Positions 3,286 through 61,417 of a stretch of DNA of 64,000 bases are shown here, piece after piece. Source of the DNA: an uncultured Bacteroidales bacterium (lineage in GTDB: Bacteria > Bacteroidota > Bacteroidia > Bacteroidales > VadinHA17). The DNA lies in the NCBI GenBank assembly GCA_963792925.1, contig CAWBYC010000005.1:306946-370945 (forward strand), written 5' to 3'. Position 1 is the stretch's first letter; each line of letters opens with the position of its first letter. The notes beneath the pieces were generated by a model, which saw nothing but the letters and a program-made list of their open reading frames with translations, was not told the DNA's origin and did not search any database. Position numbers and translations under genes: made by a program.

Positions 3286-5437
3286 ATGCGACCACAATTC
3301 AAATATACTGATCTGAAAAATCTTCATCTCAACAAACAGGATATCAGGTGAATGGGAGAAGAAAAATAAAATAGAAAAGGATTGGGTTACCCCCGAAAGA
3401 ATTCCGATAAAGAGCGCGTATACAAAAGAGGATCTTCAGGGGATGGAGCACCTTAATTATGCAGCCGGTATCCCTCCGTTTTTACACGGGCCATATTCAG
3501 GAATGTACGCCATGCTTCCCTGGACAATAAGACAATATGCAGGATTTTCGACGGCGGAAGAATCAAATGCGTTTTACCGGCGCAATCTGGCTGCAGGTCA
3601 AAAAGGATTGTCAGTTGCTTTCGATCTGGCTACACACAGAGGATATGATTCAGATCATGAACGGGTAACAGGCGACGTTGGAAAAGCCGGAGTTGCGGTC
3701 GACTCGATTCTTGATATGAAAATTCTTTTTGACCAGATCCCTCTGAATAAGATGTCGGTATCAATGACCATGAACGGAGCAGTTCTTCCTGTCATGGCAT
3801 TTTATATTGTTGCTGCACTTGAGCAGGGGGCAAGGCTTGATGAACTGACCGGTACAATACAGAATGACATATTGAAGGAATTCATGGTGCGGAATACTTA
3901 TATCTATCCCCCTGAATTCTCGATGCGGATTATCGCCGATATCTTCAGGTATACCTCCGAAAAAATGCCCAAGTTCAATTCAATAAGCATTTCAGGATAT
4001 CATATGCAGGAAGCAGGTGCAACCTGTGATATTGAGCTTGCATATACTCTGGCTGACGGACTTGAATATCTTAGAACAGGTATAAAAGCCGGTTTGGATA
4101 TCGATGCGTTTGCACCAAGACTTTCATTCTTCTGGGCTGTTGGCATGAATCATTTCATGGAAATTGCCAAGATGAGGGCAGCAAGAATGTTATGGGCGAA
4201 GATTGTCAGCGATTTTCATCCGAAAAATCCAAAATCGCTGGCTCTGAGAACACATTGCCAGACTTCGGGATGGAGTCTTACAGAACAGGATCCATATAAT
4301 AATGTCGGTAGAACCTGTATTGAGGCAATGGCTGCCGTACTGGGCCATACACAGAGCCTGCATACAAACGCTCTTGATGAGGCAATTGCACTGCCAACAG
4401 ATTTTTCGGCCCGAATTGCCAGGAATACCCAGATATATATACAGGAAGAGACACAGGTCTGCAGGGCGATCGATCCCTGGGCCGGGTCGTACTATGTGGA
4501 GACTCTTACCAACGAGATTGTACAACGCGCATGGGAACATATCAAAGAGGTGGAAAACCTCGGAGGAATGGCAAAAGCAGTGGAATCTGGAGTCCCCAAA
4601 ATGAGAATTGAAGAGGCCGCCGCGCGGGCCCAGGCTAAAATTGACTCGGGTATTCAGACAATTGTGGGGACAAATAAATATAAGCTTGAGAAAGAAGATC
4701 CTCTCGAAACTCTCGAAGTTGATAATTCGGCTGTAAGAGAATCGCAGATACTCAGACTGGCAAAACTCCGGGCTGAGAGAAATGAAAATGAATGCCAGAG
4801 TGCACTCGAAGCAATTACAAAATGTGTTCAGACAGGTGATGGAAACCTCCTTGAACTGGCAGTGGAGGCCGCTTCAAAACGTGCAAGTCTTGGCGAAATA
4901 TCTTATGCATGTGAAAAAATTGTTGGGAGGTACAAAGCTGTGATACGGACAATATCAGGTGTTTATTCATCGGAGTATAAATCTGATGATGATTACAATG
5001 AAGCAAAGGCACTCGTTGCAAAATTTGCTGGGCGAGAAGGCCGTCAGCCAAGGATCATGATCGCGAAGATGGGTCAGGACGGGCACGACCGCGGGGCAAA
5101 AGTTGTCTCGACAGGATATGCGGATATTGGCTTCGACGTAGACATCGGGCCGCTTTTCCAGACACCCGCCGAGGCTGCAAAACAGGCCGTGGAAAATGAT
5201 GTCCATATACTGGGCGTTTCCAGTCTGGCCGGTGGACATAAAACATTGGTTCCACAAGTAATAACAGAGCTAAAGAACCTGGGAAGGGAAGATATTCTTG
5301 TAATTGCAGGAGGTGTTATCCCTCATCAGGATTATCAGTTTCTATATGATTGTGGCGTGGCTGCAATTTTCGGTCCGGGAACATCAATCTCGAAAGCCGC
5401 TAAACAGATATTGGAGATCCTGCTGGAAATCAGTTAA
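3286..5437 (+). CDS. mutB: Methylmalonyl-CoA mutase large (alpha) subunit. One frame break near 3345-3350; intact ORF 3443..5437
   Basis: The 664-aa ORF has the MCM catalytic barrel ([21 protein letters not shown]) and a C-terminal B12-binding domain ([11 protein letters not shown]). Upstream, [21 protein letters not shown] / [31 protein letters not shown] is the expected N-terminus split over two frames. Confidence 0.93.
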
Positions 5438-31584: not shown

Positions 31585-33877
31585 ATGATTAGTACTTTAT
31601 TTTGGATTGTTCCAATTTCAGCGCTTCTGGCATTATTGTTTGCCTGGATCTTTTACAAAGGAATGATTGTACAGGAACAGGGAACCGACAAAGATGAAAG
31701 AAATTGCTGCGTACGTTAGCGAGGGAGCTATGGCATACCTCAGACGTCAGTATTCAGTTGTAGGCAAGGTATTTATAATCCTTGTTGTATTACTATCGAT
31801 ACTGGCTTATATGGGTATACAGAACCCATTTGTGCCGATTGCTTTTCTTACAGGTGGTTTTTTCTCGGGCTTATGTGGTTACCTGGGAATGAAAACTGCA
31901 ACAGCTGCTTCAAACAGGACAGCCTGGGCTGCTTCAAAATCGCTTAACAAAGGATTACAGGTAGCATTGCGAAGTGGTGCTGTTATGGGTCTTGTAGTTG
32001 TTGGTTTTGGACTTCTTGACATCGCAATATGGTTTATATTGCTCAATAAGGCGGTTTTTACTCCTGAGCATATGGCAAATGGCCTTCATTTCCTTGGCCT
32101 TACATTTGTTGCCGCAGGAACCGATGAGCATCAGAAATTTATTGAAATAACAGCTACTATGCTTACATTTGGTATGGGTGCTTCAACACAGGCTCTTATT
32201 TGCACGTGTTGGTGGTGGTATCTTTACAAAAGCTGCTGACGTTGGTGCTGACCTGGTTGGTAAAGTTGAAGCAGGTATTCCTGAAGATGATCCACGTAAC
32301 CCTGCAACTATCGCTGATAACGTAGGTGATAACGTAGGTGACGTTGCCGGTATGGGTGCCGACCTTTACGAATCTTATGCAGGTTCAATCCTTGCAACTG
32401 CCGCTCTGGGTGCTGCACTTCCAATCACTTGCACCGGGTGATCAGATGAAAGCAATTATTGCACCTATGATGGTATCTGCTATTGGTATTATCCTATCAA
32501 TTGTAGGAGTTTATATGGTAAGAACAAAAGAAGATGCTACTCCGAAAGCTCTTCTCCGTGCTCTTCTGCTTGGTACCGGAGGTAGTTCAGCTCTTATTCT
32601 TGCAGTACTCGCTGGAATGGCTGCTATTGACTGGATCACATGGGGCGTCTTTGGCGCTGCTGTTTCAGGTCTTGTTGCAGGTGTTATTATTGGCCAGTCA
32701 ACTGAATATTTTACATCAGATGGCAATGCACCCACACAGGGTATTGCAAAACAGTCACAACAGGGTCCTGCTACAGTAATTATTGAAGGTATGGCTGTAG
32801 GCATGTATTCAACATGGATCCCTGTAATCACAATCGTTGCCGGTATCATTGCCGCATATGGTTTTGCAGGTGGTTTCCATAGTTTTGCAAATGGCGTTTA
32901 CGGTATAGGTTTTGCATCTGTAGGGATGCTTTCCACTCTTGGGGTTACTCTTGCTACTGATGCTTTCGGACCGATTGCTGACAATGCAGGAGGAAATGCT
33001 GAAATGGCCGGACTACCTGAAGAAGTAAGAGAAAGAACTGATGCTCTCGACGGTCTTGGCAACACCACAGCCGCTACAGGTAAAGGATTTGCTATTGGTT
33101 CAGCTGCCCTTACAGCTCTTGCACTTATGGCTGCTTATATGGAAGAAATCAGGATGTGGCTAACAAGAATGGTTGATAAAGCTCCTGAAGGATTTAAACA
33201 GATTGGTGATACCTTATTCTATCATAACACGATGCCTGCCGTACATGATGGTCAGGTAGCAGTGAATCTTGCCAATGCAAACATTAAAGATTTTGTTTCT
33301 GCCTATGATCTCTCAGTTTTCAATCCGATCCTTCTTGGTGGCATCTTTATCGGAGCTATGATGGCATTCCTTTTCAGTGCCATGAGCATGAAAGCAGTGG
33401 GAAGAGCTGCCGGTAAAATGGTTGATGAAGTAAGACGTCAGTTCCGCGAAATTCCGGGTATCATGGATGGTACTGGAAAACCTGAGTATGCAAAATGTGT
33501 TGAGATCTCAACAGCAGGTGCGCAGAGCGAAATGCTGGTTCCTTCACTGATGGCTATTGCTGTTCCTATGGTAGTTGGTATTGTACTCGGAGTTCCCGGA
33601 GTTATCGGTCTGCTTGCAGGAGGTATGAGCAGCAGGATTTGTTCTTGCAAGTATGCTTAATAATGCAGGCGGCGCCTGGGATAATGCCAAAAAATATATT
33701 GAAAGAGGCAATTATGGCGGCAAGAAAAGCGAATGTCATAAAGCCACAGTTGTTGGTGATACAGTTGGTGATCCTTTCAAAGATACATCAGGCCCGGCTC
33801 TTAACATCCTCATCAAACTGATGTCGATGGTATCTGTTGTGCTTGCGGGTCTTACAGTTGCATGGAGTCTGTTTTAG
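31585..33877 (+). pseudogene. hppA: Membrane-integral pyrophosphate-energised cation pump (K+-dependent-type signature), 4 or more frame breaks
   Basis: Conserved M-PPase motifs [26 protein letters not shown] and [26 protein letters not shown] carries Ala at the K+-dependence determinant. The fragments are 31585-31720, 31667..32239, 32169..32441, 32338..33660 and 33653..33877. Confidence 0.9.
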
Positions 33878-33938: not shown

Positions 33939-33971
33939 GATTAATGGTAAAGACCTCCGGGGGAAATTTCC

Positions 33972-34401
33972 CCTCCTTTTTTCAGGCTAATCTTTTTTCA
34001 CACCTTAACTGAGAATAATACTTTTGAAAATTTGTACAGTCCTCGGAGATCCCTCGCTCATCCACCTTATGTTCACAACTATCTGTAAATGAGTGGGGTG
34101 GATTCGCTCGGGATGACAGTCGGTTATAGAGGACAAGGGGGGAAGGAAGAAGCGGCGATTCGACCGGAATCTTTTAAATGTTGAAAATTATTGTTTCGAA
34201 TCGCCGCTTCTTCCTTCCCCATATCCACCTAAAAACGTGTCATCCCGAAACTCATCCACCCCTAAACACAACTCTAAAGCAATGGTTATAAGGTGGATGA
34301 GTTGAGGGATCTCCCAAACATTTACCGATTTTTATTAACTCATTCTTGCTTTTGGTGATACAAGGGAAAAGATGTGATGTAAGATTAGTTGAAAAGGGAG
34401 G
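33972..34401. repeat. Four-tier nested palindromic element, copy A (about 430 bp)
   Basis: There are four nested arm pairs. M1 is 33972-34004 / 34365-34401. M2 is GGAGATCCCTCGCTCATCCACC at 34045-34066 / 34292-34315. M3 is GGTGGATTCGCTCGGGATGAC at 34097-34117 / 34239-34260. M4 is GGGGGGAAGGAAGAAGCGGCGATTCGA at 34137-34163 / 34196-34220, a perfect 25-bp stem with a 32-nt loop. Confidence 0.85.
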
Positions 34402-38436: not shown

Positions 38437-38621
38437 GCGTTTATCGTTTATCGATTTTTAATATTAAGAACTTACACAGAGTTGCACAGAGGACCACAGA
38501 GTTTCACAGAGTAAGCCCCATGCTCCCTGCTCCATGCCCTCCGCCACATCGCCTGTCGCCAATAATACATTCCACCTCTGTGGCTCTCTGTGGTCCTCTG
38601 TGGTTCTCTGTGTAAGTTCTT
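38437..38621. repeat. Composite intercistronic repeat: CGTTTATCG tandem, a CACAGAG-periodic inverted repeat, and the ACATCGCC...ATAATACAT motif
   Basis: GCGTTTATCGTTTATCGA is at 38437-38454. The left arm AAGAACTTACACAGAGTTGCACAGAGGACCACAGAGTTTCACAGAG is at 38466-38511. The right arm CCTCTGTGGCTCTCTGTGGTCCTCTGTGGTTCTCTGTGTAAGTTCTT is at 38575-38621. CACATCGCCTGTCGCCAATAATACAT lies in the loop at 38545-38570. Confidence 0.85.
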
Positions 38622-38630
38622 CATTTCTTA

Positions 38631-44805: not shown

Positions 44806-45468
44806 TTACAGTACTTTTATTACCTCATTAACCTGTCTTTGCATATCAATCGAGTAACGGTCGATCATCATCTGAAGATAATGATAACAGCTATAGGCTA
44901 TTACGCCGACAATCAGTCCTGTGCCGCTGCAGATCATCTTCTGATATAATCCGCCGGCAATAATGCCGATACTTATATTATCGGCAAGGGAGATATTATA
45001 GAAAATTTTTATAACCCCGGCAATAGTTCCAATGAACCCCAGCATTGGTGCTATACCTGCAATGATACCAAGATAACCCGTGTTCTTTTCCATTTCGGAG
45101 ATTTCAAGATTGGCAGTAGCCTCCATATAATTCTCAATTTCCTTTGGTGTCTTGCTCTTCTGGCTCAAACCGCTTTCGAGTATTCTTCCAAGCGAAGTAT
45201 CACTGCTCTGGCTTTGTAACAGCGCTTCCTGCTGCTTTTTATTCCTCATTTCGCCAATAATATTAAATACCAGGTCCTGATCTACAACCGCTGTTTTTCT
45301 GATATAAAGAAACCTTTCAATGAAAAGATATATGCTGAATATTGATAGCAGGAGTATTGGTATCATGATGAATCCGCCTTTCATAAGCAATTCAAAAACA
45401 TTGTTGACGGCATTGGTATCTTTCAGATGAGGCTGATCTATTGCAAGGAGAAGGAAGTTGTACACCAT
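44806..45468 (-). CDS. exbB: MotA/TolQ/ExbB proton-channel protein
   Basis: 220 aa with three TM helices and the conserved GIAPMLGFIGTIAGVI. Confidence 0.85.
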   Translation of the reverse strand: MVYNFLLLAIDQPHLKDTNAVNNVFELLMKGGFIMIPILLLSIFSIYLFIERFLYIRKTAVVDQDLVFNIIGEMRNKKQQEALLQSQSSDTSLGRILESGLSQKSKTPKEIENYMEATANLEISEMEKNTGYLGIIAGIAPMLGFIGTIAGVIKIFYNISLADNISIGIIAGGLYQKMICSGTGLIVGVIAYSCYHYLQMMIDRYSIDMQRQVNEVIKVL

Positions 45469-45654: not shown

Positions 45655-46362
45655 ATGACTGCTGCATTTTTGCAAATTACTCAGACTTTTGATACCCTGA
45701 ACAAAGCGGGTGCCACATCACTTCCCGTTCAGCATGCTCCCGAAGCTACAAGACTGATTGATATGATTATGAAGGGAGGTATCATAATGATACCGATCGG
45801 GGTGCTTTCAATAATTGCCGTGTATGTATTTATAGAAAGGTATCTGACTATCAGGCGTCATATTTCTTCGGATGTGGATTTTATGAACAGTATTCACGAG
45901 TATATACTTAACGGAAGAACTGACTCAGCGCTCACGTTATGCAGGAATACTGCAAAACCTATTGCAAGGATGATCGAGAAAGGTATATCGCGTTTGGGCA
46001 AACCAATAAAAGAAATTGAAGAATCCATTGAGATAGCAGGTAAATTTGAAGTTTACGATCTTGAAAAGAATATCCAGATTCTGGCTGTTATCGCAGGTAT
46101 AGCACCAATGTTTGGTTTCCTCGGAACTATTATCGGCGTTATAAAAATATTCTTCAATATTTCATTAACAAGCGACGTGAGCATAGGCAGCGTTTCTGCC
46201 GGTCTCTATGTAAAAATGGTTACCAGCGCGGCCGGATTGATTGTGGGTATAATGGCATATATCGGTTATCATTGGCTTAATATAATATTGAACAAGGCCA
46301 TACATCAGCTGGAATGGAATGCGATGAATTTCATTGACCTTCTTAAAAGTCCGTCAAAATGA
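45655..46362 (+). CDS. exbB: MotA/TolQ/ExbB proton-channel protein (paralogue, divergent)
   Basis: 235 aa with GIAPMFGFLGTIIGVI. Transcribed divergently from the other pair. Confidence 0.85.
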   Translation: MTAAFLQITQTFDTLNKAGATSLPVQHAPEATRLIDMIMKGGIIMIPIGVLSIIAVYVFIERYLTIRRHISSDVDFMNSIHEYILNGRTDSALTLCRNTAKPIARMIEKGISRLGKPIKEIEESIEIAGKFEVYDLEKNIQILAVIAGIAPMFGFLGTIIGVIKIFFNISLTSDVSIGSVSAGLYVKMVTSAAGLIVGIMAYIGYHWLNIILNKAIHQLEWNAMNFIDLLKSPSK

Positions 46363-47348: not shown

Positions 47349-47509
47349 ATTGTGAAATTTAATAAGAATCAAAGTTACAAATAAAGTTTGTTTCATGGAT
47401 AAAGTCCCCCATTCCTGATTTCTTACTCTTCACCCCGAGGAGATTTCCCATTCTCGCTTTTTTACTCCCAACCCCCTGAAGGGGCTTAATCCCAGTCGCA
47501 GTTCTTGAA

Positions 47510-48030
47510 CCCCCTTTCAGAGGGCCTAATCTTTCGTCACATCTTTTCGATACTCACCCCCAAACCCCATAGCCGTCAACCTAAGAGGTAAGGTGCAGAA
47601 ATACAATGGGTTAAATTTCCCCTCCTTTCTTTCGTCACATCTTTTTTCCTCTCAATACTGCCATTTACAAAAATGAAGCAATGAAGTATTCGTTATAATG
47701 ATCGGGAGATCCCTCAACTCATCCACCACATATCCAGAGCTTTAGAGACAGGATCAGAGGTGGATGAGTTTCGGGATGACAAATATTTTGTCAGTATTGG
47801 GGGAAGGAAGAAGCGGCGATTCGACCGAAATTTTTTAGAATGAAGAAAATGTTGATTCGAATCGCCGCTTCTTCCTTCCCAATTGTTCCCCTTATAAGCC
47901 GAACGAATCCACCTTTCTCATTTACAGATATTTAAACGCTTATGGTGGATGAGTGAGGGATCTCCAAGGTTTGATCAAATTTCCAAAATAATATTGACAG
48001 AAAGATGTGACTAAAGATTAGTTCAGGGGG
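47510..48030. repeat. Four-tier nested palindromic element, copy B (inner unit 47619-48030, plus an extra M1 module at 47510-47548)
   Basis: M1 is at 47510-47548 and 47619-47647 / 48000-48030. M2 is GGGAGATCCCTCAACTCATCCACC at 47704-47727 / 47944-47965. M3 is GGTGGATGAGTTTCGGGATGAC at 47759-47780, with a degenerate partner at 47898-47913. M4 is 47799-47824 / 47857-47880. The M4 stem is identical to copy A, and the outer tiers equal the reverse complement of copy A. Confidence 0.85.
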
Positions 48031-48117
48031 CAGTGGGTAAATGACCGGGAATGAGATACATCCTCTATTTGAGTCTAAAGAGTGTATATTTATATTATTT
48101 TTGAGAAAACAATCCTC

Positions 48118-49062
48118 ATGAAAATACCCGAACTGTCCGATATTGAATCTGCTTATACACGAATTAAACCATATGTTCACAATACTCCTGTTCTGAGCTC
48201 AGTACAGCTGAATGATATTTTCAACTGCGAACTTTACTTCAAATGCGAAAATTTCCAGAAAGTTGGGGCGTTTAAGTTCAGAGGAGCCATGAATGCTGTC
48301 CTTTCATTGAATTCAGATCAAAGGGAGAGAGGTGTTGTAACGCATTCTTCCGGCAATCATGCAGCCGCTCTTGCTCTTGCTTCGAGGATGAACGGCATAA
48401 AAGCCAATATTGTGATGCCGGAAACTGCGCCTGAGGTAAAGAAAAATGCCGTCGCAGGTTATGGAGCGAGTATTACATTCTGTAAACCTACTCTTGAAGC
48501 ACGTGAGAGCACTACAAATGACATAATGCATCAGACAGGGGCTACACTCATCCATCCTTATGATAATTTCAATGTCATTTGCGGCCAGGGAACAGCCGCT
48601 CTGGAACTTCTTCATGAAAGAGGAGATCTTGATGTTGTAATTGCACCGGTTGGCGGCGGTGGACTTATGAGCGGAACTTCAACATATGTAAAGGGATATA
48701 GCGGTAATATTCAGGTTTTAGGTGCCGAGCCTCTTAATGCCAACGACGCTTATATTTCATTTACCACCGGAAATCTTACACCCTCGGAAAATCCGTCAAC
48801 ATGTGCAGACGGACTGCTGACTTCACTAAGTGAACTTACCTTTGCCATTATAAGGAAGAACGTGGATGCCATTTATACGGTAAAGGAAGAATCAATTATC
48901 AGCAGTATGCTGCTGGTGTGGGAGAGAATGAAAATCATTATTGAACCTTCATCAGCCACAGTACTGGCTGTCATTAAGGAGAATCCTGGTTTATTCAGAG
49001 GTAAAAAAATTGGGCTTATTATTTCGGGTGGAAATGTTGATTTCAGAAAACTACCATTTTAA
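48118..49062 (+). CDS. PLP-dependent threonine/serine dehydratase-like enzyme (fold type II; serine racemase / threo-3-hydroxyaspartate ammonia-lyase-like)
   Basis: CENFQKVGAFKFRGA (PLP lysine context), HSSGNHAAALA and the GGGGLMSG phosphate loop. Confidence 0.8.
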   Translation: MKIPELSDIESAYTRIKPYVHNTPVLSSVQLNDIFNCELYFKCENFQKVGAFKFRGAMNAVLSLNSDQRERGVVTHSSGNHAAALALASRMNGIKANIVMPETAPEVKKNAVAGYGASITFCKPTLEARESTTNDIMHQTGATLIHPYDNFNVICGQGTAALELLHERGDLDVVIAPVGGGGLMSGTSTYVKGYSGNIQVLGAEPLNANDAYISFTTGNLTPSENPSTCADGLLTSLSELTFAIIRKNVDAIYTVKEESIISSMLLVWERMKIIIEPSSATVLAVIKENPGLFRGKKIGLIISGGNVDFRKLPF

Positions 49063-51849: not shown

Positions 51850-51953
51850 TTTTCTATTTTTATTTTTTCTGTTTCCGCAATTGTCGGGCCAAAAATTGTA
51901 ATTAAACTCAATCAGTCAATTTGTCATTTTTACGTTACATTTCTTCCTTTTTT

Positions 51954-52017
51954 ACCCCCAAACCCCTAAAGTGGCCTTGTTTCTTGAACCCCCTTTAGGG
52001 GGCAGGGGGTTTAAACC
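51954..52017. repeat. GC-rich 'word' repeat overlapping the mutL stop codon
   Basis: The sequence is ACCCCCAAACCCCTAAAGTGGCC...TTCTTGAACCCCCTTTAGGGGGCAGGGGGTTTAAACC. Two modules recur: ACCCCCAAACCCC at 47566-47578 and TTCTTGAACCCCCTTT at 47502-47517. Confidence 0.7.
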
Positions 52018-53818: not shown

Positions 53819-53933
53819 TAATCAAGATATTATACAATGTAGAGCTAACATTTCAATGGGATAACAGTTCATAATGAGAGGCCGATCACCCATTTTTAAA
53901 ACACTTACAAATATATATATAATAGATTAAAAA

Positions 53934-54215
53934 GTGACCAGAGTGACTAGAGTGCATGGAGTGCCTGATTTTTACCCCTAAATCCCCCAGGGGGGACTTT
54001 GGCTTTTCAGTAGACTTCATATTTTGTTTTATCCTTGAGTTTTTGCCTCAGATTTGAGAGTGAAAGCCAGAGCTTACCAAAATGCTTAAAGTCCCCCCTG
54101 GGGGATTTAGGGGTGAAGCCACGGAGGTGCCCTTTGCTTTGCGCCCTGTGCTATTAGCTCCTTTGTGTTCCTTTGCGCAACACTTCGTGCCCTTTGTGGT
54201 TAATGTATTTGTTTA
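53934..54215. repeat. Composite repeat region: 9-nt-periodic GTGACCAGA motif, a 140-bp palindrome, and CACAAAGG-type words
   Basis: GTGACCAGAGTGACTAGAGTGCATGGAGTGCC at 53934-53965 recurs as its reverse complement at 60786-60805. The arms CCCCTAAATCCCCCAGGGGGGACTTTGG (53975-54002) and AAAGTCCCCCCTGGGGGATTTAGGGG (54088-54114) form a palindrome. 54120-54215 contains GCCCTTTG-type repeats. Confidence 0.8.
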
Positions 54216-60652: not shown

Positions 60653-60805
60653 ATGAATAAGTTTTTTCAGATTGATGTAAAAATTGCAGGTGTTTTTTGT
60701 TCTTAATTCCAATTCCAGCCAAATTCTTTGTTTTCCATCTTCATAATAATTTTCAACGTTTAATAATAATTTTCGATGTTTTTCAACTCTAGTCACTCTG
60801 GTCAC

Positions 60806-61417
60806 TTATTTTGTTATAGCTTTTATAACAAATTCAGCGGCAAAATCTTTTCTTTTTTCGATAAAATCATCGAAGTCAACATCAATTTTCTCAAGAATGC
60901 CTTCGATTATGCCCCTGGCTGCAAAGGGGAATACACTTATGGAAGCTATTGAAATCAAAAGCTGGGGCAGGGTTTTTTCTGTGATATTGTATTTATCAAG
61001 TTCATTTTTATGCTGGTTATACAGGTTAAACCAGAGAGTTTCGAAATGAATATTTTTGAGAAGTTTTTTAATTCTTGCGGGATTCCTGTTTATTTCGTTT
61101 AGGATAAATGCGGGGAGTTTAGGGTTTTCCAGGAGGAAAGTAATATGTTCCTTATAGAAGAATCTTATTTTAGCTTCGAGGCTCAGATTTTCGTCGAAGA
61201 CAGGTGCGAATTTTTTGAGCACTCTTGCTGCAAGCATTTCAAATACAGCATTAAAGAGCTGGTCTTTTGTACGGTAATAATAATGAAGCAATGCTTTGTT
61301 TATACCTGCATGGCTGGCGATATCCTGCATACGTGCGCCATCCATTCCTTTATCAACAAATACATCTGTTGCGGCTTCAAAGATTTTTTCTTCAGTAAGT
61401 TTATCATTGTCTGTCAT
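60806..61417 (-). CDS. TetR/AcrR-family transcriptional regulator (CecR/YbiH-like position)
   Basis: HTH FVDKGMDGARMQDIASHAGINKALLHYYYRTKDQLF. It is the first gene of the exporter cluster. Confidence 0.88.
   Translation of the reverse strand: MTDNDKLTEEKIFEAATDVFVDKGMDGARMQDIASHAGINKALLHYYYRTKDQLFNAVFEMLAARVLKKFAPVFDENLSLEAKIRFFYKEHITFLLENPKLPAFILNEINRNPARIKKLLKNIHFETLWFNLYNQHKNELDKYNITEKTLPQLLISIASISVFPFAARGIIEGILEKIDVDFDDFIEKRKDFAAEFVIKAITK

Follow-up and report, generated by a model that had tools for sequence, protein, structure and literature searches.

Two intergenic segments of the window, by which we mean the whole 64,000-nt stretch of DNA that was analysed, are probably two opposite-orientation insertions of an undescribed, non-coding palindromic repeat of ~400 bp, a MITE/REPIN-like element of Bacteroidales chromosomes. 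We refer to them as copy A (about 33987-34388) and copy B (about 47624-48021). In copy A, the 32-nt loop of the central hairpin is flipped relative to its own flanks, and the explanation that we favour, with reasonable though not strong confidence, is that of a palindromic mobile repeat whose loop was turned around by an unprogrammed event mediated by the hairpin arms, be it recombination, a template switch, or conversion.

Layout and orientation of the two copies

The element consists, in this order, of an M1 terminal inverted repeat, hairpin X1, the central hairpin C, hairpin X2, and the opposite terminal repeat M1', and measures ~400 bp from M1 to M1 in both copies. Copy A starts with its left M1 (CTAATCTTTTTTCACACCTTAA, 33987..34008, plus strand), continues with X1 (GGAGATCCCTCGCTCATCCACC...GGTGGATTCGCTCGGGATGAC, 34045..34117, minus strand), C (34139..34220, no strand assigned), and X2 (GTCATCCCGAAACTCATCCACC...GGTGGATGAGTTGAGGGATCTCCC, 34239..34315, plus strand), and ends with the right M1 (34367..34388, minus strand), which has two mismatches. 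The arms of its hairpin C are perfect 25-nt repeats (34139-34163 and 34196-34220), and the loop between them (34164-34195) is in the flipped state, designated p below. Copy B is reverse-oriented on the plus strand, and its X2-side M1 comes first (47624..47645, plus strand), preceded by half of a small hairpin, H (AAATTTCCCCTCC, 47613-47625). Hairpin X2 of this copy (47704..47780, minus strand) has the base GGGAGATCCCTC/TCGGGATGAC, the tip AACTCATCCACC...GGTGGATGAGTT, and a loop with GCTTTAGAG, and is the reverse complement of positions 34239-34315 in copy A. It is followed by the left arm of C (GGGGAAGGAAGAAGCGGCGATTCGA, 47800..47824), a 32-nt loop (47825..47856, plus strand) that is canonical (state q) relative to its own flanks, and the right arm (47857..47881); the arms, to which no strand is assigned, form 24 perfect pairs with the outermost base mismatched. 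Hairpin X1 (47900..47965, minus strand) carries the loop CTCATTTACAGATA and the outer stem GGTGGATGAGTGAGGGATCTCC, its inner stem being degenerate (CGAACGAATCCACC), and the X1-side M1 (48000..48021, minus strand) has one mismatch.

Both copies lie in housekeeping gene contexts, copy A where an H+-pyrophosphatase gene and a LolA-like gene converge with their 3' ends, and copy B between the divergent starts of the genes for a soluble pyrophosphatase and a PLP-dependent (threonine-dehydratase-like) enzyme. The H+-pyrophosphatase gene is broken in the window, either through indel errors in the assembly or as a pseudogene. Neither element wholly contains an open reading frame of at least 80 aa; one of 82 aa (47932-48180, minus strand) overlaps the X1-side end of copy B and extends into the flank.

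The original prediction was that the outer tiers of copy B equal the reverse complement of those of copy A, whereas the loop of the central hairpin points the same way in both. The first part was borne out for every outer module. Module M2 of copy B (47704-47727, GGGAGATCCCTCAACTCATCCACC) matches copy A only as the reverse complement of 34292-34315 (24/24), and M3 (47759-47780) only as that of 34239-34260 (22/22). Likewise, the spacer k-mers GCTTTAGAG (at 47739 in copy B) and CTCATTTACAGATA (at 47917), each of which occurs once per strand across the whole window, recur in copy A solely in reverse complement, at 34272 and 34080, respectively. In a formal local alignment, copy A scored 255 against the reverse complement of copy B and 143 against copy B itself. 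Identity of the flanks was 65% between the left side of copy A and the reverse-complemented right side of copy B, and 68% between the right side of copy A and the reverse-complemented left side of copy B, compared to ~50% for the wrong (direct or crossed) pairings.

The loops proved to be in direct orientation, also as predicted. Their direct alignment gave 25/33 matches and a score of 15, which was reached by 0 of 5,000 shuffles, whereas alignment to the reverse complement scored -2, within the shuffle distribution (P ~0.3). On the plus strand, both loops read CCG...TG(T/A)T. Independently of these alignments, a repeat finder classed the flanks as inverted (pairs I1 and I2) and the 85-nt centre as direct (pair D2). 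The spacers that adjoin the stem are colinear with the flanks in the family alignment described below, therefore the flipped segment is confined to the 82 nt of stem and loop.

Some details of the layout had to be revised. The stem of hairpin C (module M4, GGGGAAGGAAGAAGCGGCGATTCGA) had been described as identical in the two copies, which is correct for both arms of copy A and the left arm of copy B, but not for the right arm of copy B, in which the outermost base differs. What had been taken for the outermost tier of copy A (GGGGGAAATTTCCCCTCCTTTTTT, 33959-33985) is a separate module, the resident hairpin H, which adjoins the left M1 and lies outside the element. Since relatives without the element also have this hairpin at locus A, it is no tier of the element; the sequence has a direct match at 47608-47648. 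Two other peculiarities of copy B are real: its right-hand M3 is degenerate, with GGGATGAC missing, and there is an extra M1 end module (CTAATCTTTCGTCACATCTTTT, 47526..47547, plus strand) with 0 mismatches to the M1 pattern. The latter stands alone outside copy B, past the end of the element and after an unrelated module of ~75 nt.

A repeat family of uncultured Bacteroidales

Further copies were searched for with an exact 19-mer of the C stem in a collection holding one genome per species. This yielded 56 genome loci, 48 of which belong to MAGs of uncultured Bacteroidales/Bacteroidia (~19 MAGs, one of them labelled Ignavibacteria). With few exceptions, these 48 have a complete hairpin C within the same scaffold. 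The remaining eight matches are single arms in unrelated phyla, consistent with chance expectation. With a polarity-specific X1 pattern, 12 loci were added from metagenomes of fens and peat. A single MAG contained up to 13 C-bearing loci, with different flanking sequence at each.

A multiple alignment of 14 copies showed sharp M1 ends and colinear flanks. The first half of the scaffold reads GGAGATCCCTC, variable tip, TCGGGATGACA, and a spacer of ~20 nt up to hairpin C, and the second half continues from there with another ~20 nt of spacer, TGTCATCCCGA, variable tip, and GAGGGATCTCC. Each X hairpin is composed of a conserved base (GGAGATCCCTC/TCGGGATGAC) and an exchangeable tip, and hairpin C has a perfect stem of 24-25 bp and a loop of ~30 nt. 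In the subfamily to which the window belongs, the scaffold is bounded by M1 (CTAATCTTACATCACATCTTTT), and this module (CTAATCTTnnnTCACATCTTTT) is inverted at both ends in copies A and B and in at least 12 other copies.

With regard to a phage or plasmid origin, none of 2.9 million viral contigs contained the C 19-mer, and the element had no blastn match among plasmids. At gathering thresholds, no Rfam family matched anywhere in the window, and a permissive scan of 47400-48100 returned only generic miRNA-precursor-like hairpin matches on both strands. A full-text literature search for motif strings of the element gave only unrelated matches to eukaryotic primers, and one on MITEs and Bacteroidetes turned up no element matching this repeat. 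The family consists of MITE/REPIN-like nested palindromic repeats, thus a known type of element, but the family itself is undescribed, and it is widespread in uncultured Bacteroidales of peat and soil.

Relatives of the window differ in the presence of the element. At locus B, a syntenic contig (L076/L078) has an empty site with a spacer of 79 bp, compared to 721 bp in the window. The divergent pyrophosphatase/PLP-enzyme gene pair is kept in this contig, its PLP enzyme is 83% identical to that of the window, and the gene order is the same over ~13 kb. In a second relative (L077/L079), the spacer at locus B measures 170 bp and has a different repeat inside. At locus A, where the insertion point adjoins the small resident hairpin H (AAATTTCCCCTCC-TTTTTTCAA-GGAGGGGAAATTT), relatives with a LolA-like protein that is 94-95% identical carry different elements at the same, orthologous spot. 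The presence of different inserts at one point in close relatives indicates that locus A is an insertion hot spot with rapid turnover. At both loci, the short-read contigs of close relatives break off at a distance of ~100 nt from the flanking genes, as would be expected of a repeat. The repeats break short-read assemblies and create insertion hot spots beside housekeeping genes.

One copy (L060) is flanked by a 9-bp direct repeat (AGTGCAACT), and another (L058) has, like several others, inverted or unrelated flanks; a consistent target-site duplication of fixed length was not found across the copies and loci examined. Neither was a cognate transposase with M1-like ends present within ~4 kb of the copies or among IS256-family candidates. 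An all-against-all comparison of 470 ORFs, located within ~4 kb around the copies at 68 loci, revealed no recurrent transposase or recombinase, and the only recurrences were common paralogues and syntenic genes. Mobility is therefore deduced from the dispersal of the copies and from their presence or absence among relatives, and the element may be moved by a transposase.

Hairpin structure, loop orientation, and tip exchange

In a total of 103 X units, the base pair GTCAT[Y]...G[R]AT is C-G in 80, T-A in 20, and mismatched in 3. The left and right X hairpins of four elements differ at this base pair and yet each is Watson-Crick, which speaks for hairpins that form locally and not for a purely long-range palindrome. 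Covariation is also seen in the outer part of the C stem, which is extended by 3-7 further pairs that vary in sequence (GGGAA/TTCCC, AGGT/ACCT, GGGT/ACCC, and others). At the base of each X hairpin there is a tandem G-A/G-A mismatch, on the outward-reading strand only, and the minimal X tips are GAA-type mini-hairpins, such as ACGAAGT and GCGAAGC. Both tandem G-A/G-A mismatches and GAA-type mini-hairpins are stable in single strands. When folded as single-stranded DNA, whole elements reached z-scores of -11 and -14. Judged by these patterns, the hairpins are a real and maintained feature of the element, and there are signs that they form in vivo.

Such structures could mean that the element functions as single-stranded DNA or RNA, with the orientation of the loop being selected relative to the chromosome, i.e., to the direction of replication or transcription. 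This would fit with the covarying local hairpins and with the shared plus-strand orientation of the two loops in the window, and the restriction of the G-A/G-A mismatches and GAA mini-loops to the outward-reading strand is what is expected for a single-strand form. However, absolute loop orientation showed no association with either the sign of the GC skew or ORF strand bias at 22 loci, although this comparison is noisy with loci of 1-8 kb. Moreover, tips are freely exchanged between near-identical copies (see below), which is hard to square with a conserved RNA, there was no Rfam match, and convergent gene ends around copy A and divergent starts around copy B provide no shared transcriptional context. 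Therefore, we consider selection on strand quite unlikely.

The orientation of the loops relative to their flanks was compared across the family. Polarity was read from the asymmetric flanks, ATATCTGTAAATGAG in the X1 loop and TCTAAAGCA in the X2 loop, and both polarity and loop were readable in 25 copies. The canonical state q (AACAAAAA...CTTCGG or ATCAAC...TTTCGG) is found in 22 of them: copy B, eleven in the MAGs MFD01721 and MFD05942, and ten from metagenomes. The other three, copy A, L026, and L050, have the reverse-complement state p, and in two further copies the loops are unrelated. Both orientations of the centre thus occur in nature. The original prediction had left it undecided which copy of the window has its centre flipped relative to the flanks; on the family comparison, copy A carries the flipped arrangement and copy B keeps the ancestral one.

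In a neighbour-joining tree of the flanks, L026 falls inside the q copies of its own genome, L050 is their sister, and copies A and B pair on long branches. The loops of L026 and L050 share 81-88% identity with reverse-complemented q loops of their own genome, compared to 65-72% with other p loops. For the loop of copy A, the best matches (74-76%) are the canonical loops of copy B, L057, and L019, again in reverse complement. The flipped loops are therefore reverse complements of the local canonical lineage and not kin to one another, indicating that the flip recurred. According to these comparisons, the p state arose at least two times independently, and probably three times, every flip being an exact reversal between the TCGA ends of the stem. 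The flipped loops have diverged by 12-35% since flipping, so that the flips are old, fixed events. Flips of the X1 and X2 loops were not found among the 14 aligned copies, and inspection of the Co_metawrap_757 subfamily revealed no flips either.

It could be argued that flipped loops are artefacts of assembly or polishing, whereby reads of other copies, wrongly oriented on the palindromic arms, overwrite the loop. The arms are identical in both orientations in all copies, which makes multi-mapping plausible, and the H+-pyrophosphatase gene of the window (~31586-33875) is split over at least five frame segments, compared to an intact ortholog of 762 aa. However, the three flipped loci are spread over two independent assemblies, the sequence of each flipped loop is unique and does not duplicate any other sampled loop, and a clean inversion of 32 nt with its limits exactly at the stem is not what indel errors produce. 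An artefact is in our view extremely improbable.

The recurrence of both states could also reflect a programmed invertible switch, with the 25-bp inverted repeats serving as the substrate of a site-specific recombinase, in the manner of the invertible promoters of Bacteroides or of Hin/Gin. Indeed, perfect 25-nt inverted repeats bracket an asymmetric segment, the sequence of the stem is strongly conserved, and both states exist in nature. However, a segment of 32 bp is very short, to our knowledge far shorter than any characterised invertase substrate, and it has no recognisable promoter. In addition, no recombinase gene recurs within ~4 kb of the copies, and the states are skewed (22:3) and stable within lineages, as illustrated by the orthologous copies L031 and L055, which share the same loop orientation over ~7% divergence. 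The divergence of the flipped loops since flipping also speaks against a switch, and we regard it as very improbable.

The same orthologous pair provides a measure of how quickly the loop changes. The flanks of L031 and L055 are 92-94% identical, and within the element 133/139 positions are identical outside the loop versus 25/35 in the loop (Fisher P = 1e-4). By this measure, the C loop is a hot spot that evolves much faster than the rest of the element, a sign that it is fragile. Its length varies between 21 and 35 nt and is mostly 29-33 nt. The C stem is identical across species with 7-25% divergence of neutral DNA, a conservation that is partly due to ascertainment since the search used the exact stem. 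Stem conservation and loop length together hint at a sequence-specific recognition by some protein, which would not be explained by a purely passive model.

Modular shuffling, another process that had been proposed to account for the pattern, was seen directly, in the form of near-identical copies with different hairpin tips between fixed junctions. Metagenome copies that are >90% identical elsewhere contain three unrelated X2 tips (TCCCGCTTCAGCGGGA, AACTCATCCACC...GGTGGATGAGTT, and ATTCCGACAA...TTGTCGGAAT), spliced exactly between GTCATCCCGA and GAGGGATCTCC, and these tip types recur in other subfamilies. Going by these junctions, the short conserved stems are anchors, and whatever lies between them gets exchanged. 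The X anchors are not palindromic, so the orientation is kept in an exchange, whereas the C anchors are perfectly palindromic, so the orientation can reverse. This difference between anchors would be the simplest account that unifies tip swaps and loop flips.

Origin of the flip and known systems

The C arms form an exact palindrome, hence each arm has homology to the other as well as to both arms of any further copy, whichever way these are oriented. If an event involves the arms alone, only the asymmetric loop would be reversed and the flanks would stay as they are. Candidates are intramolecular recombination between the two arms, a switch of template during replication across the hairpin, and ectopic gene conversion, in which another copy, paired in the 'wrong' orientation, donates a short tract. 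For classical double-strand recombination, 25-bp repeats that lie 32 bp apart are very short, thus replicative or conversion routes seem more likely. A large inversion between copies A and B through their homologous parts was also worked through on paper and rejected, as it cannot flip the loop relative to the flanks, and the 13.6-kb spacing of the two copies is presumably no cause of the flip. The original prediction, which invoked recombination across palindrome arms or modular shuffling, is therefore supported by the family data, and for the molecular mechanism we infer an unprogrammed by-product of palindrome instability and not a switch. The element itself would have no host function, and the loop flip is probably a recurrent, passive consequence of a perfect palindrome and mechanistically ordinary. 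This passive model does not account for how strongly the C stem is conserved, how little the loop varies in length, and how cleanly the cassettes are swapped, and these points leave a small chance that a dedicated hairpin-processing enzyme, discussed below, takes part.

Flipped loops could also stem from insertion. Hairpin C might be an independently mobile mini-element, consisting of two 25-bp terminal repeats and a remnant of ~30 bp, that inserts either way into a larger palindromic host, in which case the flip is simply the orientation of insertion. The stem is indeed identical in subfamilies with unalignable flanks, and the length of the loop is constrained. Nesting also recurs, with elements located in or beside hairpin H and different elements at one site across strains, and one copy (L015) contains 726 nt of foreign DNA between the C arms. 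However, hairpin C is always found at the same position, preceded by GGGATGACA and ~20 nt and followed by ~20 nt and TGTCATCCC, and it has no flanking direct repeat. The spacers of flipped copies are colinear with those of canonical copies, and the loops are reverse complements of canonical loops of the same genome, so that an independent hairpin C would need precise excision and reinsertion at the identical base. With the one candidate parent, from the IS256 family, refuted as well, we consider this origin unlikely.

The candidate parent came from L015, in which the C arms lie 745 nt apart and enclose a fragment of an IS256-family transposase (Transposase_mut, profile positions 160-377 of 379). 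This would have made the C arms the terminal repeats of an IS256-family insertion sequence, and C a mini-MITE derived from it. However, the fragment is internal and truncated at both ends, and the full relatives L069-L071 (two-ORF transposases) end in GTTTACACAAAAA-type repeats and have no C-arm sequence, so that the idea was rejected.

Finally, the 25-nt arms of C, together with the X-hairpin bases GTCATCCCGA/GAGGGATCTCC, might be sites for a dedicated strand-specific enzyme, such as an HUH/Y1 nuclease or a hairpin-resolving recombinase. Acting on extruded hairpins, such an enzyme would produce flip and flop of the C loop and a clean replacement of tips at fixed junctions, and would occasionally capture foreign DNA, e.g., the 726-nt transposase fragment of L015. 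We judge its existence to be highly doubtful. If it were true, the family would offer a handle on a new DNA-hairpin-processing activity and represent a hairpin-cassette exchange system of a kind undescribed in bacteria. The family provides natural evidence for long perfect palindromes being extruded and processed in vivo. On a practical note, flips and swaps can mislead alignment-based repeat typing and the polishing of long-read assemblies.

The element resembles MITEs and similar repeats (Correia/NEMIS, ERIC, and the MITEs of P. gingivalis; PMC10969869, PMC4596501) in that it is short, non-coding, and has terminal inverted repeats. Like MITEs, it occurs in many dispersed intergenic copies that are present or absent between relatives, and it has a strong potential for secondary structure and internal modular variants. 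It differs from MITEs in having neither an identified cognate transposase nor a consistent target-site duplication. Furthermore, its interior is made up of three hairpins with conserved bases and swappable tips, and the central stem is far more conserved than the termini.

A second comparison concerns REP, BIME, and REPIN sequences, in which REP doublets form hairpins and owe their mobility to RAYT Y1 transposases. An X unit in its minimal form (GTCATYCCGA + 7-8 nt + GAGGRATC) is an imperfect palindrome of ~30 nt, which is the size of a REP. As in REPINs, two X units are inverted around a spacer, here around C, and clusters are mosaic as in BIMEs. The strand-asymmetric mismatches of the X units suggest a single-stranded form, again as in REP/REPIN. 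However, X units begin with TGTCAT, and the GTAG/CGTC tag of REPs is absent. Compared to REPINs, the element has an extra, long central hairpin, and no RAYT gene was found near the copies (loci of ~8 kb). The superfamilies of REP sequences have been surveyed (PMC3733652).

Bacteroides invertible promoters, Hin/Gin, and fimS share with the element a segment that lies between inverted repeats and occurs in either of two orientations. In the element, however, this segment is 32 bp, has no promoter or coding content and no nearby recombinase, and its states are skewed and lineage-stable. The terminal palindromes of AAV (a parvovirus) and the telomeres of poxviruses flip and flop when a site-specific nick is followed by hairpin transfer at the termini of a linear replicon. 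Here too, the two states differ only in the inverted, asymmetric interior of a palindrome, but the element is internal to the chromosome, and we know of no nicking enzyme for it.

The loop flip is the same phenomenon as the minute inversions of plastids, in which a loop bracketed by a short inverted repeat occurs in either orientation, recurrently and homoplasiously, while its stems do not change. For non-coding DNA of chloroplasts, such hairpin-associated minute inversions were described by Kelchner and Wendel (1996), as cited in PMC2903610, and inversions of plastid trnH-psbA are also known (PMC2903610). The plastid inversions concern single-copy loci and usually shorter stems, whereas the hairpin of the element is located inside a multi-copy, mobile-type repeat, so that ectopic conversion between copies is an additional possible route. 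With this family, there is a clean example from bacteria, in multiple copies, of hairpin loops that invert recurrently, as has been documented mainly in plastid DNA, and the family displays loop hypermutability and hairpin-tip swapping as well.

Replacement of hairpin tips and loops

The ~400-bp nested-palindromic element carries two X hairpins, X1 and X2, each with a conserved base and an exchangeable tip, on either side of a central hairpin, C. Eight metagenome copies (L057, L058, L060, L062-L064, L066 and L068) are near-identical except for a swapped X2 tip. The replacement is clean, bounded by GTCATCCCGA and GAGGGATCTCC, and brings in a hairpin of 16, 38 or 53 nt; these tips are also present in other subfamilies. 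X2 tip replacement among the metagenome copies is a cassette-like exchange. In MAG MFD05674, the X-type unit GTCATCCTGAGCGAAGCCGAAGGGT was found head-to-tail in two to four or more copies adjoining the central hairpin (L024:2620-2740; L037:4330-4400 and 5190-5250), and therefore the small palindromic unit is also capable of tandem amplification.

At locus L015 (MAG MFD05705.bin.1.156), hairpin C has its two arms separated by 745 nt (L015:3883-4646). Between them lies a truncated IS256-family transposase pseudogene, which covers positions 160-377 of the Pfam Transposase_mut profile, contains one in-frame stop and directly adjoins a C arm on either side. The true relatives of this insertion sequence have ends unrelated to the C arms, and the loop of the L015 central hairpin has been replaced by foreign DNA.

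Flanks of copies A and B

At locus A, the site of copy A, a small resident hairpin, AAATTTCCCCTCC-TTTTTTCAA-GGAGGGGAAATTT, adjoins the terminator of the H+-pyrophosphatase gene (window 33959-33985). At the identical point at this hairpin (compare L083:759-1084 and L084:2138-2520), three strains carry three different repeat elements, with a LolA-like protein that is 94-100% identical, and the hairpin at window 33959-33985 is an insertion hot spot. Next to different copies, its 7-9-nt loop is found either way round, as TTTTGAA or as TTCAAAA. The H+-translocating pyrophosphatase gene itself (window 31586-33875) is split into at least five reading-frame segments, compared to an intact 762-aa ortholog in L083, which reflects either a pseudogene or assembly indel errors in this region.

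Copy B is flanked by the additional small G/C-run hairpins CCCCCTGAAGGGG, CCCCCTTTCAGAGGG and CCCCCTTTAGGGGG, and also by a CATTCCnG...TTTACCC pair (window 47400-47525 and 48022-48090). These flanking modules were found again near window 51930-52015. In view of these extra repeat modules, what is inserted at locus B (690 bp) is a mosaic of several modules and not a single element.

Other inverted repeats in the window

An 84-nt inverted repeat with 80% complementarity (window 44990-45073 and 46080-46163) lies within two divergent MotA/ExbB paralogues, one on the minus strand (44806-45468) and one on the plus strand (45655-46362), and represents coding similarity of these paralogues rather than a repeat element. 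Two inverted 49-nt arms, 86% complementary with a 64-nt spacer, are located at window 38463-38624, in the intergenic region upstream of a 381-aa gene, and each arm consists of four CACAGAG-containing units. The 381-aa gene is adjacent to a bAvd/23S-IVP-like gene in contig L078, whose synteny with the window stops there. At window 53971-54117, the 30-nt inverted repeat TTTACCCCTAAATCCCCCAGGGGGGACTTT is 97% complementary with an 87-nt spacer; the motif AGTGACCAGAGTGACTAGAGT lies immediately upstream (53929-53953), with an inverted second occurrence at 60786-60810. The TTTACCCCTAAATCCCCCAGGGGGGACTTT/AGTGACCAGAGTGACTAGAGT repeats form a palindromic family distinct from the A/B element.
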